A program made the position numbers and the translations under genes. DNA of 56,539 nucleotides from an uncultured virus (IMG/VR IMGVR_UViG_2061766007_000535) (taxonomy: Duplodnaviria; Heunggongvirae; Uroviricota; Caudoviricetes), in IMG/VR virus record IMGVR_UViG_2061766007_000535; one strand, given 5' to 3'. Position 1 is the stretch's first letter. Each line of letters opens with the position of its first letter. Under the pieces are notes generated by a model, which made no database searches, was not told where the DNA came from, and worked only from the letters and a program-made list of their open reading frames with translations. Below, piece by piece: positions 44,192 to 50,561 of this stretch.

Positions 44192-46249
44192 TTATTCTCC
44201 TGTTTCGGGTTTAGCCTCACGTGAGGCTAAACTCTCTTCGACCGCCTGAATCCGATGTCCGATCCACGCCATCACGTTCACGCACATCGAATTCCCGCAA
44301 GCCTTATACCGCGGGGCATCCGGGCATTCCTCCTCAGGCTTGCCCTTCCACTTGATGCGGGTGTGGTTATCCGGGAAGCCCATCAGACGCTCGCATTCGA
44401 CCGGGAGAAGTCTCCGAACAGTCGACTGCCAGCTGACGCCGGGGACGGATGCGGAGGTAATCGTGTTCATCGGAGCACCGTCTTCCCCAACGCCGACGCC
44501 TTGCCGGTTCTGTTCGTCTTTCTTATTCGGATCGCGTGTCGCGTTCCTCAGATCAAGTGGAACACACTCTGCAAAATCAACAATCATCTGACCGCCTTGT
44601 GCCTTCTGTGGCGTCGGGATCGTGGTGTCCAGCGTTTTTGCGACGTCAGTCTCGTGGATGCCGCTGTTCGGATTCGAACTTTTCATCGAATTGCTCCGAT
44701 CAGCGTCTATCGTCCATACGCGGGGCTTCGAGACACATTCCATCGTGGCTACGCCCATCACGCCCGTGGCGTTCTGTGTGTATGCCAATTCTTCCTGAGC
44801 TCCGACCCCGTTGCCGCCCGTGTGGTCCTGTCGGCCAATGATGTTCTCAGCAATAGCCACGGAATCGATGATGACCGTTTCAGCATTTGTGCCGCCTGCC
44901 GTCACCGTCTTGCTCGCATCAGCCTCGGTCACATACAGCCCGCCGTCCGGCCGATCTTTCCTTGTGCCGTTGGCATCGCAGAAGCTGACGTTGTATGCGA
45001 CTGCCGGGAGCGCACCGCTCCTGAGCGTCGGGAATGTGTCACCCCAGAAGCCCTGCTGTTCGCCTCCGGCATCATTCTTGATGAAGCCGACGGGCTTGCC
45101 TTCGACCATGTATTTGTCGCAGTCTTCAAGGGAGTTCTTTTCATACATCGAAGCCATCAGCGTGGGCGCGACATCCTTCTCCTGAACATCATCCATCACA
45201 AGCGGAGTCTGGTTGCCTCCCGTTCCCCAACGGCTCATCACTGTCGGGGAGACCGGAACTTCCTTCACTCTGGCATCGGACGGATGGTTTTCAAAGCAGA
45301 CGGCTCCGGGCCCTTTTGCGGTCAGCGTGGGCTGAACATCTTCCGAAAGGCTCATGCCATATTTGGCATTCTGCCCCTGATTGAACACATCGCGACCAAG
45401 TCCGACAGCCTTGCCGCCTTTGTAGTCCGTGGCGATCAGCGTCGGCGCAATCTCAACTTCCTGCACCTCGACCTGTCTCATGTCCATGCATTCGACGGCA
45501 GGCTCGATCACGCACTGGAGACGTCCCTTGTCCGGCATCAACTGATTGTTGCTCGTTCCGGTCAGTGTTCCGGCCTGGTCGCTGCCATCCCACCACTGAG
45601 CGTCTTCCGTCAGAGTTACGATGGTCTGGTCATTCCCCGTCGCCAGCGTGTGGCTCAGGTCGTCGCCGACTAAAGCTCCTTTTCCGCCTCCGGTTTTTCC
45701 TCCACGCATCCGGATTGACTTTGTCGTATCAATGCCTCCTTCAGCACAGGCGGGAGCGGCTTGCCTCTTCGTTCGGCTCGGCGGAGAATCCCCTCCGCGC
45801 ATCTCGCCGTCAAATAATACCGCTGCGGGATAAAGCCACGAACCAAGATATCCGACAATGAAGAGACGTCTCCTTCTTTGCGGGACTGCCCTCGGAAATT
45901 CGGGAACTCTGGTATACTGAGCGTCAAGTATTCTCCACGCCACTCCAAAGCATCCAGGTGCAGGGGTGACGATTCCACACTTGCGCCAGCCTCCTTCGGG
46001 GACATTGACTTCCCATCCGCACAGCAGCGATAGGAAGCTGGCAAAATCTTTTCCGGCCCCGCTTGACAAAAGACCAGGGACGTTTTCGACCAGCGTCCAT
46101 CGTACCCCTGTGCGATAAGCCAGTTTGACAAATTCAAGGGCAAGGTGTCCACGGGGGTCGGTAATCCCTTTTCTAAGCCCCGCGATAGAGTAGGACTGAC
46201 ATGGGACCCCGCCGACGAGCAGGTCAATTGGTTCATCGAAATCCTCCTT
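44192..46249 (-). CDS. C5-cytosine DNA methyltransferase, very long multi-module variable region (5' part in other fragments)
   Basis: Motif IV GGVPCQ, VI ENVPG, VIII PQRRRRLFIVG, IX RRLLPVECERLMGFPD, X YKACGNS. Confidence 0.95.
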   Translation of the reverse strand, partial: KEDFDEPIDLLVGGVPCQSYSIAGLRKGITDPRGHLALEFVKLAYRTGVRWTLVENVPGLLSSGAGKDFASFLSLLCGWEVNVPEGGWRKCGIVTPAPGCFGVAWRILDAQYTRVPEFPRAVPQRRRRLFIVGYLGSWLYPAAVLFDGEMRGGDSPPSRTKRQAAPACAEGGIDTTKSIRMRGGKTGGGKGALVGDDLSHTLATGNDQTIVTLTEDAQWWDGSDQAGTLTGTSNNQLMPDKGRLQCVIEPAVECMDMRQVEVQEVEIAPTLIATDYKGGKAVGLGRDVFNQGQNAKYGMSLSEDVQPTLTAKGPGAVCFENHPSDARVKEVPVSPTVMSRWGTGGNQTPLVMDDVQEKDVAPTLMASMYEKNSLEDCDKYMVEGKPVGFIKNDAGGEQQGFWGDTFPTLRSGALPAVAYNVSFCDANGTRKDRPDGGLYVTEADASKTVTAGGTNAETVIIDSVAIAENIIGRQDHTGGNGVGAQEELAYTQNATGVMGVATMECVSKPRVWTIDADRSNSMKSSNPNSGIHETDVAKTLDTTIPTPQKAQGGQMIVDFAECVPLDLRNATRDPNKKDEQNRQGVGVGEDGAPMNTITSASVPGVSWQSTVRRLLPVECERLMGFPDNHTRIKWKGKPEEECPDAPRYKACGNSMCVNVMAWIGHRIQAVEESLASREAKPETGE
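45670..46236 (-). CDS. Overprinted 188-aa ORF, M.EcoHK31I-beta-like MTase subunit
   Basis: AAGGAGG-6 nt-ATG inside the MTase gene; SSLSDIL...RYYLT...GILRRAERRGKPLPPVLKEAL; also open in the allele 48252..48780. Confidence 0.8.
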   Translation of the reverse strand: MNQLTCSSAGSHVSPTLSRGLEKGLPTPVDTLPLNLSNWLIAQGYDGRWSKTSLVFCQAGPEKILPASYRCCADGKSMSPKEAGASVESSPLHLDALEWRGEYLTLSIPEFPNFRGQSRKEGDVSSLSDILVRGFIPQRYYLTARCAEGILRRAERRGKPLPPVLKEALIRQSQSGCVEEKPEAEKEL

Positions 46250-46259
46250 NNNNNNNNNN

Positions 46260-48989
46260 CGCCCGACGAAGCGCAGACAGAAAAAGAACGGAAGCAGAGA
46301 GAAAGCTGGGAGAAACAGATTGCCGAGCTCCCCGAAGGCGGAACGATCCCGAATCTGGGCGACTTTCCCAAAATCACGAAGGAGGATTTCGATGAACCAA
46401 TTGACCTGCTCGTCGGCGGGGTCCCATGCCAGTCCTACTCTATCGCCGGCCTCAGAAAAGGTATCACTGACCCACGCGGACACCTTGCCCTTGAATTTGT
46501 CAAACTGGCTTATCGCACAGGGGTNNNNNNNNNNGCTTCCTCGACAGCCTGAATCCGGCGTCCGATCCATGCCATCACGTTCACGCACATCGAATTCCCA
46601 CAGGCCTTGTACCTCGGAGCATCGGGGCATTCATCTTCCGGCTTGCCCTTCCACGCGATGCGGGTGTGGTTGTCGGGGAATCCCATCAGACGCTCACATT
46701 CGACCGGCAGAAGCTTGCGAACGGTCGACTGCCACCCGACACCGGGGACAGACGCGGAGGTAATAGTGTTCATCGGAGCACCGTCCTCGCCGACGCCAAC
46801 GCCCTGCCGGTTCTGCTCATCTTTCTTATTTGGATCGCGCGTCGCGTTCCTTAAATCAAGGGGAACACATTCCATCGTGGCCACGCCCATCACACCCGTG
46901 GCGTTCTGGGTGTATGCCAGTTCTTCCTGAGCTCCAACACCGTTGCCGCCTGTGTGGACCTGTCTGCCGATGATGTTTTCGGCAATCGCCACGGAGTCGA
47001 TGACAACAGTCTCGGCATTCGTGCCGCCAGCCGTCACCGTCTTGCTTGCATCTGCCTCGGTCACATACAGCCCGCCTTCCGGTCGATCTTTCCTTGTGCC
47101 GTTGGCGTCGCAGAAGCTGACATTGTAGGCGACTGCGGGAAGAGCACCGCTCCTGAGCGTCGGGAACGTGTCGGCCCAGAACCCCTGTTGTTCGCCTCCG
47201 GCATCATTTTTGATGAAGCCGACGGGCTTGCCTTCGACCATGTATTTGTCACAGTCTTCNNNNNNNNNNTGGTCACTGTCTTGCTCGCATCCGCCTCGGT
47301 TACATACAGACCTCCGTCCGGTCGATCTTTCCTCGTGCCGTTGGCATCGCAGAAGCTGACGTTGTACGCGACAGCCGGAAGAGCTCCGCTCCTGAGCGTC
47401 GGGAATGTATCGCCCCAGAACCCCTGCTGTTCGCCTCCGGCATCNNNNNNNNNNAACCCGAACCTCCTTCAGCCTCGCATCGGATTGATGGTTTTCGAAA
47501 CAGACTGCTCCGGGTCCCTTGGCGGTCAGCGTGGGCNNNNNNNNNNTTCTCCTGAACATCATCCATCACGAGCGGCGTTTGATTCCCGCCCGTTCCCCAA
47601 CGGCTCATCACGGTCGGGGAGACCGGAACTTCCTTCACTCTGGCATCGGACGGATGGTTTTCGAAACAGACTGCTCCGGGTCCCTTGGCGGTCAGCGTGG
47701 GCNNNNNNNNNNGGCAACGTCCTTCTCCTGGACATCGTCCATCACGAGCGGTGTCTGATTGCCGCCCGTTCCCCAACGGCTCATCACGGTCGGGGAGACC
47801 CGAACTTCCTTCAGTCTCGCATCGGACGGATGGTTTTCGAAGCAGACGGCTCCGGGTCCCTTGGCGGTCAGCGTGGGCTGAACATCTTCCGACAAGCTCA
47901 TGCCGTATTTGGCATTCTTCCCCTGATTGAACACATCGCGTCCGATTCCGACAGCCTTGCCGCCTTTGTAGTCCGTTGCGATCAACGTCGGGGCAAGCTC
48001 TGTTTCCTGAACCTCGACCTGTCTGGTATCAATACACTCGACGGCAGGTTCGATCACACATTGGAGCCGTCCCTTGTCCGGCATCAGCTGATTATTGCTT
48101 GTTCCAGTCAGGGTTCCTGCCTGATCGCTTCCATCCCACCACTGCGCGTCTTCGGAAAGCGTGACAATGGTCTGATCGTTTCCTGTTGCAAGAGTGTGGC
48201 TTATGTCAGTTCCGACCAACGCGCCCTTACCGCCCCCCTCACGACCACCTCTTAGCCGGATTGACTTTGTCGTATCAATGCTTCCTTCAGAACGGGCGGC
48301 AGCGGCTTGCCTCTTCGTTCGGCGCGGCGGAGTATCCCCTCCGCGCATTTCGNNNNNNNNNNACATCTCGGAGTCAAATAGTACCGTTGCGGGATAGAGC
48401 CACGAACCAATATATCCGACAATGAAGAGACGTCTCCTTCGCTGCGGAACCGCCCTTGGAAATTCGGGAACTCTGGTATATTGAGCGTCAAGAATGCGCC
48501 ATGCCACTCCAAAGCATCCCGGTGCAGGCACGACGATTCCACACTTGCGCCAGCCTCCTTGGGGGACGTCGACTTCCCATCCGCACAGCAGCGATAGGAA
48601 GCTGGCNNNNNNNNNNNNNNNNNNNNNNNNNNNNNNNNNNNNNNNNNNNNNNNNNNNNNNNNNNNNNNNNNNNNNNNNNNNNNNNNNNNNNNNNNNNNNN
48701 NNNNNNNNNNNNNNNNNNGAGGCCGGCGATAGAGTAGGACTGGCATGGGACACCGCCGACAAGCAGGTCAATTGGTTCATCGAAATCCTCCTTCGTGATT
48801 TTGGGAAAGTCNNNNNNNNNNGAGGTGTCCGCGCGGGTCGGTGATACCTTTTCTAAGCCCGGCGATAGAGTAGGACTGGCATGGGACCCCGCCGACGAGC
48901 AGGTCAATTGGTTCATCGAAATCCTCCTTCGTGATTTTTGGAAAGTCGCCCAGATTCGGGATCGTTCCGCCTTCGGGGAGCTCGGCAAT
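46260..48989. CDS. Multiple allelic fragments of the MTase gene
   Basis: Near-identical repeats of 44192..46249 between N gaps, one inverted. Confidence 0.9.
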
Positions 48990-48999
48990 NNNNNNNNNN

Positions 49000-49239
49000 T
49001 GTTCCGCCTTCCGGAAGCTCGGCAATCTGTTTCACCCAGCTTTCTCTCTGCTTTCGTTCCTTCTCGGTCTCGGCTTCCTCTGGCGGGAGCAAACGCAGAG
49101 GCCGTGTCGCCCCGAACCGCTGTTGCAGGACGGCTGCCGGGAACGGTTCGACTTCCGCGAAGAACACCGCCTTCCATCCGAGCGGTGCCCAGGCCAGTGT
49201 CGCGGCTTCCACGCCGCTGCATACGCTTCCGTAGTTCAT
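49000..49239 (-). CDS. MTase N-terminus (motif I)
   Basis: GGAG SD; MNYGSVCSGVEAATLAW...FAEVEPFPAAVL. Confidence 0.9.
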
Positions 49240-49502: not shown

Positions 49503-50561
49503 ATGAAGAAAGATGACCATCATTTAACAGATCAGTCCAAAAAAGGGGAATCGTTATCTTCCCGCAGGACATATACCACATCTCCCCGATATCAGCAGAT
49601 GGCTCGCATGAACCGCATTGTTTCTTTGCTGAAGATGAACAACTGCCCGACAGCCAGAAAGATTGCGGACGAGCTCAGCGACCTGGAGGTTGCATCCGGG
49701 AGGGTAATTCATAAGAACTACAGCATTCGGACAATATACCGTGATATAGACGCGCTCAGGAACGAATTCCATTGCCCGATCCTGTTCGACCGGGCTACTG
49801 ACACATACCGTCTTGAGGATACGAAGTGGGAATTCAACTGGCCGTCCTATCTTTCGGAAGAGGCTTCCTTCGCGCTCATCATAGGAAGTCATGTGGCCGA
49901 GGAGATTATTCCGAACCCTTTGCGTGCGCGCATAAAGAAATCTGTAGATGAACTCTTAAAGAGAAGCAATACGGGATTCATCGGAAATGCAAATCTGAAG
50001 TCACTGAAGATTTTTGCCGGTGGAGGAGAACCGGAAAACAAGGGCGTCTTTTCCGTAATCTTTGATTCCTGGCGAACGCATCGGAGCGTAAAGATTGTGT
50101 ACGACAACCAGAAGGGGAGCATTTCCGAGCGAGTTGTAGACCCGCATGTTCTGTATTATCATCTGCGTGAATGGCGCATCAAGGCGTTCTGCCACAAAAG
50201 CAATGATGATCGCGTGTTCGTAATCAACCGAATCCGGAATGCTTGGCAGTTGAATGAAACGTTTATGCCGAACAAAAAAACAATCGATTCCGTCACGGCG
50301 GATCACCTCTCCAGCTACGAAAAGCTGAAAGACGTGAAGATAAAGCTCACCGGGGACGCCGTGAAGTTTGCAAAAGTAAACCACATGCATTCCAAGCAGA
50401 AAATCAAGAACGGCGTTCTCTTCATCCCGGAGGTCTCGTTCGAGGTTGCCGTACCGTGGATTTTGGCTCAGGGAGGACAGGCATCCGTAATTGAGCCTGC
50501 AGAGTTGAAGAAGCGAGTACGGGAAGTGGCTCAGGCGGTCATTGACGGCAACTCGGACTGA
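49503..50561 (+). CDS. HTH-WYL-WCX transcriptional regulator
   Basis: TARKIADEL...RTIYRDIDALR HTH; ERVVDPH...WRIKAFCH...RVFVINRI WYL; WILAQGGQASVIEPAELK WCX. Confidence 0.93.
   Translation: MKKDDHHLTDQSKKGESLSSRRTYTTSPRYQQMARMNRIVSLLKMNNCPTARKIADELSDLEVASGRVIHKNYSIRTIYRDIDALRNEFHCPILFDRATDTYRLEDTKWEFNWPSYLSEEASFALIIGSHVAEEIIPNPLRARIKKSVDELLKRSNTGFIGNANLKSLKIFAGGGEPENKGVFSVIFDSWRTHRSVKIVYDNQKGSISERVVDPHVLYYHLREWRIKAFCHKSNDDRVFVINRIRNAWQLNETFMPNKKTIDSVTADHLSSYEKLKDVKIKLTGDAVKFAKVNHMHSKQKIKNGVLFIPEVSFEVAVPWILAQGGQASVIEPAELKKRVREVAQAVIDGNSD

Follow-up and report, generated by a model that had tools for sequence, protein, structure and literature searches.

In M.AquI-type split C5 methyltransferases, the two chains are encoded by two consecutive genes and not nested in another frame. 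A nested arrangement has been described for M.EcoHK31I, the alpha/beta C5 methyltransferase of Escherichia coli HK31 (YGGCCR; Lee, Kam and Shaw 1995, via PMC2836561). According to an excerpt of the latter source, the smaller beta chain of M.EcoHK31I is encoded wholly inside the alpha gene in another reading frame, activity depends on both chains although some of the N-terminal part of beta can be dispensed with, and alpha is said to lack motif IX, which is carried by beta (PMC2836561). Here, we report on a C5 methyltransferase gene in a 56,539-nucleotide scaffold of an uncultured virus of the Caudoviricetes (IMG/VR record IMGVR_UViG_2061766007_000535), the whole of which was analysed and is referred to below as the window. 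A preliminary description of the window had noticed an open reading frame (ORF) overprinted on this gene and had likened it to M.EcoHK31I, whose beta it correctly gave as encoded in an alternative frame of alpha. In the following, alpha stands for the product of the main frame and beta for the putative product of the nested ORF. We consider it probable that the gene is dual-coding and that beta is a second chain with its own internal start, which would bind alpha, so that methylation would need both chains.

The nested frame and its relatives

The minus strand from 46249 to 46229 reads AAGGAGGATTTCGATGAACCA. The main frame opens with KEDFDEP at 46249, and the ATG of beta lies 13 nucleotides (nt) further, which places beta in the +1 frame. 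The preliminary description had reported a Shine-Dalgarno (SD) sequence 6 nt before an out-of-frame ATG at 46236 that opens 188 codons over motifs IV-VIII, and these coordinates read exactly as claimed. The nested ORF overlaps the alpha motifs IV (PCQ), VI (ENV) and VIII (QRRRR), and its stop codon lies approximately 50 codons past motif VIII. The most conserved block of beta (45727-45924) overlaps motif VIII and the next ~40 codons of alpha, and the third positions of the alpha codons are nearly frozen there; in the predicted structure of a related beta, this block alone is modelled with high confidence.

Alpha matches the C-5 cytosine DNA methyltransferase family PF00145 (E 1.5e-28) in two stretches, profile positions 46-162 and 269-323, and has no match to profile positions 163-268, which lie between motifs VIII and IX. 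A canonical PF00145 enzyme in the nearest genome among those compared (G001), which has 28% of the window's sampled words in common, matches profile positions 3-322 in one stretch. The catalytic motifs IV (PCQ), VI (ENV), VIII (QxRxR), IX and X are all in alpha, with motif I on an N-terminal fragment; the earlier statement that alpha retains motif IX is therefore accurate, and motif X was seen in the main chain as well. The middle of alpha (44192-45700, minus strand) is made up of approximately ten loosely repeated units of the form xPTLxA...GG, such as SHTLATG, APTLIATDYKGG, QPTLTAKGPG, SPTVMSRWGTGG, APTLMASMY and FPTLRSGA, of which several assembly fragments at 46535-47700 represent alternative versions.

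A tblastn search with the 188-residue beta matched 113 phage records, and in all eight annotated phage records that were opened and checked by hand, the match was offset by +1 from the annotated methyltransferase coding sequence. We then gathered 11 close viral loci and three sets of 80 loci each. One viral set was obtained with the beta profile (out of at least 567 relatives among at least 582 pattern matches), another viral set was seeded with the N-terminal half of the enzyme only (576 of the 581 pattern matches being relatives), and the third set came from species-representative genomes (356 of 536 pattern matches being relatives). The latter comprised Alpha-, Beta- and Gammaproteobacteria, Acidobacteriota, Saccharibacteria, Planctomycetota and others, and one metagenome-assembled genome (MAG) of the Haloarculaceae. 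The census used two profiles, one of beta and one of alpha motifs I-VIII. In all loci with both profile matches (259/259), beta was in the +1 frame of alpha: 8/8 phage records, 10/10 and 80/80 beta-seeded viral contigs, 80/80 alpha-seeded viral contigs, 1/1 for G001, and 80/80 bacterial or archaeal genomes. Two loci lacked paired profile matches (one cut at a contig end, one on the opposite strand, read by eye). The open beta frame lay wholly within the open alpha frame in 255 of the 259 loci, the other four being contig ends or frames that open further upstream.

The median length of the open frame was 161 codons in +1 versus 30 in +2. When the alpha genes of 80 loci were shuffled synonymously, the observed open length was reached in 294 of 8000 shuffles, and the median of 161 codons compared with 65 for the shuffled genes. 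As a single negative control, the canonical PF00145 gene of G001 contains 13 stops in its +1 frame. The preliminary description had suggested looking for stop-codon avoidance, and the frame is indeed open in relatives that were chosen without regard to beta, namely in 80/80 alpha-seeded loci. Of note, loci L181 and L262 of G001 encode a diverged second methyltransferase, in which the nested beta is 37% identical to that of the window, and the canonical single-frame PF00145 enzyme.

The dmt gene of phage P1 (NC_005856.1) also contains a beta relative in the +1 frame, which is 44% identical to the beta of an enterobacterial phage along 94% of its length (E 2e-26), and none of the 25 features annotated in this stretch is a nested ORF. 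P1 Dmt itself is annotated as a bifunctional adenine and possible cytosine methylase of 754 amino acids (aa). As far as sequence comparison can tell, the nested layout recurs, unannotated, in hundreds of phages including P1, and beta is a large unnamed family that is always found in the +1 frame of such methyltransferase genes.

Selection on the nested frame and its start site

Selection was tested in a related clade, for which 73 unique alpha genes of the alpha-seeded set were aligned by codon. The third-position entropy of alpha was ~1.5 bits before the start of beta, 1.05-1.3 over the N-terminal part of beta and 0.40-0.69 over its C-terminal block, and it returned to 1.3-1.7 at motifs IX-X. 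Over the C-terminal block the phase was inverted, with alpha position 1, which is position 3 of beta, being the most variable (1.26-1.56 versus 0.40-0.69 at alpha position 3). A restriction to conserved fourfold-degenerate alpha codons, which takes out composition effects, gave third-position entropies of 1.82 bits for the stretch ahead of beta (n=11) and 1.85 for motifs IX-X (n=10), versus 1.23 over the N-terminal part of beta (n=17) and 0.45 over the C-terminal block (n=13); for each part of the overlap the difference from the flanks had a Mann-Whitney p of ~7e-7. In the clade of the window itself, represented by 12 sequences with the window and G001 among them, the entropies over the C-terminal block were 0.00-0.14 at position 3 and 0.28-0.79 at position 1, and position 3 rebounded to 0.9-1.4 directly past the stop codon of beta.

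The real +1 translations scored a median of 230 bits on the beta profile (minimum 92), and synonymously shuffled genes a median of 70 (maximum 131). Part of the similarity among betas thus reflects alpha, and the larger part does not. The +1 position, the suppression at fourfold sites and the phase inversion together support the claim of the preliminary description that the nested ORF is a gene, and, on these codon statistics, beta is a protein-coding frame under purifying selection. Also, the alpha residues after motif VIII (...AAVLFD/E...R.D.PP.R...) are, judging from the codons, forced by the beta codons for YYL(S/T) and GILRRA, and what looks conserved in alpha past motif VIII would largely be a shadow of beta codons.

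An ATG in the beta frame near motif IV was found in 122 of 158 unique loci, most often 11-12 codons ahead of PCQ, and in most of the remaining loci this position is taken by TTG or GTG, or an ATG lies further on and would yield a shorter product. An SD-like word was present 4-16 nt upstream in 73 of these 122 loci, versus 12% of positions generally. In the related clade, the alpha K and E codons at the SD site were AAG in 49/55 and GAG in 47/60 cases, compared to 44% and 41% in the remainder of these genes. All close relatives in the window's clade (10/10) retain both the ATG and the GGAGGA core, while the surrounding alpha residues vary.

A possible second chain of the enzyme

The beta of the window belongs to no family in Pfam, NCBIfam or PHROGs, and three of five other beta-like or fused chains match phrog_16143 weakly (best E 3e-8). 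Gene callers have produced ~150 unnamed beta-like proteins (152 matches), and the clusters closest to beta in the ESM Atlas are likewise unnamed, mostly viral 'hypothetical proteins'. Three longer database chains consist of a full beta followed in frame by a recognition region and motifs IX-X. When the databases were searched exhaustively with one such fused chain (P0123), beta and motifs IX-X lay in one continuous frame in 33 of the 150 top clusters at 50% identity, and these 33 fused clusters are without motifs I-VIII. Because beta reads on into the recognition domain and motifs IX-X in these clusters, we take it to be part of the enzyme. The fusion of beta to motifs IX-X is also found in DNA, at locus L249. 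In this locus, which comes from a Parvibaculum MAG, the beta frame passes from GILRRA directly into motifs IX-X without a recognition region, and the alpha frame runs for ~200 further residues past motif VIII.

An AlphaFold2 model of a fusion, based on an alignment of natural fusions and betas, had a predicted local distance difference test (pLDDT) score of 87-97 in the beta block, and motifs IX-X were modelled with confidence too. Its best match among solved structures was 3qv2_A, a Dnmt2-type C5 methyltransferase (Z 5.5, root mean square deviation 3.0 Å over 89 residues), with residues 123-350 of the model aligned to residues 187-303 of the chain. C5 methyltransferases made up 6 of the 15 top structural rows, each aligned from model residue 112-125 on. 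We take this match of a predicted structure as supporting, not decisive. When the beta of a compact relative was folded alone, residues 100-152 formed three helices, SLSD(T/I)LE, ACxGILRRAxKRGK and LPxxLxxAL.

In the explanation that we favour, the main frame would give alpha with motifs I-VIII, a repeat-rich recognition region and motifs IX-X, and independent initiation at the internal SD and ATG just ahead of motif IV would give beta, 188 aa in the +1 frame. Beta would bind alpha, and its helical C-terminal module (SLSDIL - YYL - GILRRAExRGKxLP) would supply in trans the first part of the small (target-recognition) domain, which in single-chain enzymes comes after motif VIII and which alpha appears to be without. 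Methylation would thus need both chains, as in M.EcoHK31I. In a sister architecture, the beta frame runs on into the recognition domain and motifs IX-X, and alpha presumably stops early. The preliminary description had proposed that beta supplies the piece following motif VIII; this fits the in-frame fusion to the recognition domain and motifs IX-X (33/150 clusters). The heterodimer and its need for activity are inferred. A broader claim, whose chances seem to us evenly balanced, is that a phage and prophage 'orphan' clade including P1 dmt consists of obligate two-chain enzymes, amounting to hundreds to thousands of genes in many bacterial phyla, in which the +1-frame second chain carries the start of the target-recognition domain and single-base frame changes at the end of the overlap switch between 'long alpha + short beta' and 'short alpha + long beta'.

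Among 238 unique loci, 189 are laid out as in the window, with motifs IX-X in the alpha frame and a short beta, one has motifs IX-X in the beta frame and eight have them in a further ORF; in 25 loci no motif was found by regular expression and in 15 the motifs would lie off the contig. In six loci (L039, L080, L141, L185, L189 and L261), motifs IX-X are in a separate downstream ORF, +1 of alpha and after the beta stop, possibly a third, three-piece layout. Eight database chains of 224-284 aa (P0054, P0071, P0073, P0077, P0083, P0086, P0094 and P0103) have the N-terminus of the enzyme joined to the C-terminal half of beta. The alpha part of these chains extends through motif IV, in most of them through motif VI, and the junctions differ. 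They are probably the result of indels or sequencing errors and not an architecture of their own, or, less probably, a truncated isoform.

Several points weigh against a second chain. The translation of beta and its binding to alpha are both predictions, and the alpha of the window is broken by assembly gaps, its integrity being inferred from G001. An SD-like word is absent in 49 of the 122 loci that have an ATG, and an ATG near motif IV is absent in 36 of the 158. Beta does not match PF00145 even at an E-value threshold of 1. Among solved chains, a profile search with beta gave one match at chance level (E 0.042), and the beta model had no Foldseek match with an E-value of 0.001 or lower. The beta of the compact relative, folded alone, reached a mean pLDDT of 60 and was confident only at residues 100-152. 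The structural match of the fusion is weak, with a Z of 5.5 that is below the caution line of 7-8, and it comes partly from motifs IX-X, which are homologous anyway. Shuffled genes that keep the protein of alpha still score ~70 bits on the beta profile, hence the similarity of betas is partly imposed by alpha. Finally, motif IX is in beta in M.EcoHK31I, according to the excerpt cited above, whereas alpha keeps both IX and X here.

Beta could be a real protein without being a structural chain of the enzyme, in which case it might regulate the expression or activity of the methyltransferase, bind DNA or counter host defence, and merely be housed in this gene. Such a role would suit the part of beta that is predicted with confidence, a small three-helix module rich in Arg and Lys, and it would suit the lack of a sequence match to PF00145 and the closest solved look-alikes outside the methyltransferases, which are generic helical pieces. 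However, beta was never found apart from a methyltransferase gene (259/259 loci), and an unrelated function is hard to reconcile with the 33 of 150 clusters in which beta forms the N-terminal part of a chain with motifs IX-X; we consider this explanation unlikely. Less probable still, and in our view improbable, is a -1 shift into the main frame, close to the end of beta, by ribosomes that initiated at the internal ATG, which would yield a long chain of beta, recognition domain and motifs IX-X. The fused architecture does exist as plain DNA in other genomes, and the passage from the beta frame to the alpha frame is exactly one -1 step, yet a canonical slippery heptamer occurs in the last 45 codons of beta in only 32 of the 238 unique loci, and the position of the beta stop varies between alleles of the same prophage (188 versus 176 residues).

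The remaining explanation is that the frame stays open and similar only because the enzyme sequence is conserved, or because the nucleic acid itself is constrained, and that no protein is made. The shuffles that preserve alpha do reach a median of 70 bits on the beta profile, and 294 of the 8000 attain the observed open length; in addition, several conserved residues of beta coincide with alpha motifs, for example GKTSP over ENVPG. Nevertheless, the real scores are ~160 bits above the shuffled ones, the start codon and the codon choice at the SD are retained too, and alpha hardly varies at its synonymous sites exactly where the conservation of beta is highest, with the variability shifting to the third position of beta. 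Frozen sites together with such a phase shift point to coding in the beta frame and not to an RNA or DNA element, which makes a mere by-product very improbable. A second chain of the methyltransferase is the reading that we retain.

Locus, assembly and comparison with known systems

The setting of the gene is prophage-like, with the methyltransferase located between a lambda-family portal gene (PF05136) and a WYL/WCX regulator (Table 1). The window is a scaffold with 76 N runs, of which 10 are between 46250 and 48999. In this region, short contigs from at least two alleles of one methyltransferase locus are strung together, one of them inverted (46260-46524). Gene order and copy number are unreliable there, and one of the alleles matches G001. 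Only one long piece of the methyltransferase gene is uninterrupted (44192-46249, minus strand), and a different fragment (49000-49239) encodes the N-terminus with motif I. G001 was used as the reference for the intact gene. Its locus L180 contains the same prophage gene intact, with the same regulator alongside, as one gene with a main frame of 767 open codons and a nested ORF of 176 residues. The length of beta differs between alleles of the same prophage, 188 residues versus the 176 of the G001 version.

The 21-mer with the SD and the ATG has four exact occurrences in the window (46229-46249 minus, 46379-46399 plus, 48773-48793 minus and 48909-48929 minus), against 0 expected from 100 shuffles. 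The preliminary description had counted these as four copies, and the 21-mer is identical in all four, but they are allelic assembly fragments of one locus and not genomic copies, because N runs crowd 46250-48999. A diverged allele (48252-48746, minus) keeps the beta frame open in its sequenced parts, as had been noted, and retains the SSLSDIL / QRYYLT / GILRRAERRGKPLP block. The block had been called unchanged, which is true of SSLSDIL, QRYYLT and GILRRAERRGKPLPPVLKEAL, but there are two substitutions nearby, F to S and A to P.

Table 1. Features of the methyltransferase locus in the window
Feature	Position	Strand	Remark
Nested beta ORF, 188 codons and TAG (45672-45670)	45670-46236	minus	+1 frame of the methyltransferase main frame
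Shine-Dalgarno sequence AAGGAGG, 6 nt before the beta ATG (46236-46234)	46243-46249	minus	also codes for alpha K-E-D
Most conserved block of beta, residues ~105-170: TL..PEFP, SSLSDIL, QRYYLT, GILRRAERRGKPLPPVLKEAL	45727-45924	minus	invariant columns
Contiguous alpha: motifs IV, VI, VIII, long repeat-rich middle, IX, X, stop	44192-46249	minus	PF00145, 1.5e-28
Alpha N-terminal fragment, motif I, start ATG 49239-49237	49000-49239	minus	contiguous with the rest in G001 L180
Inverted assembly fragment of the same locus, SD and ATG (ATG 46392)	46260-46524	plus	
Second-allele assembly fragment, SD and ATG (ATG 48780)	48719-48811	minus	allele matches the G001 version
Assembly fragment, SD and ATG (ATG 48916)	48822-48989	minus	
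Diverged allele, C-terminal half of beta	48252-48606	minus	N run 48353-48362; ends ...IRQSQSG as in G001
Lambda-family portal gene, PF05136	42541-43989	minus	
WYL and WCX domain regulator	49503-50558	plus	divergent from the methyltransferase start; same neighbour in G001

To our knowledge, DNA phages and bacteria very rarely have same-strand overlaps of 150-190 codons that persist across phyla. The one described here concerns a textbook enzyme family, and it is found neither in Pfam or NCBIfam nor in phage annotations, that of P1 included. The locus is also a clean natural case for the study of two proteins sharing one sequence. If beta is required, many 'orphan' single-chain methyltransferases of phages would in fact be heterodimers, codon-optimised or recoded clones of alpha would be dead, and target specificity may be split across two frames. 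Should the two-chain clade be real, then annotations, recoded constructs and specificity predictions would all miss half of the machine.

In a full-text literature search, whose matches were judged mainly by title and the start of the abstract, the nested family and its motifs were not described. Within the literature so covered, the principle of a nested chain is known from one enzyme, and the wide unnamed family and the variant with motifs IX-X in alpha appear to be new. Among the close known systems are the half-and-half phage C5 methyltransferases of the P0123 type, which belong to the same enzyme gene family and have the same N-terminus of beta and the same SLSDIL/GILRRA block; in these, the recognition domain and motifs IX-X are read in the beta frame, whereas in the window beta is short and it is alpha that carries motifs IX-X. 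M.AquI-type enzymes, which are split between motif VIII and motif IX, are likewise two-chain enzymes. The likeness to M.EcoHK31I lies in the beta ORF being inside the alpha frame, in the window at +1. The chains of M.EcoHK31I are reportedly ~309 aa (alpha) and ~176 aa (beta) long, and compact relatives found here, with an alpha of 303 aa and a beta of 157 aa, are similar in size to these figures. Unlike the beta of M.EcoHK31I, that of the window carries none of the ten motifs and has the helical module of the region after motif VIII instead. Also, M.EcoHK31I is the methylase of a restriction system, whereas the enzyme of the window is encoded in a prophage beside a portal gene, where no nuclease was seen. 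By analogy, we regard the enzyme of the window as one of the M.EcoHK31I kind, in a variant that has motifs IX and X in alpha.

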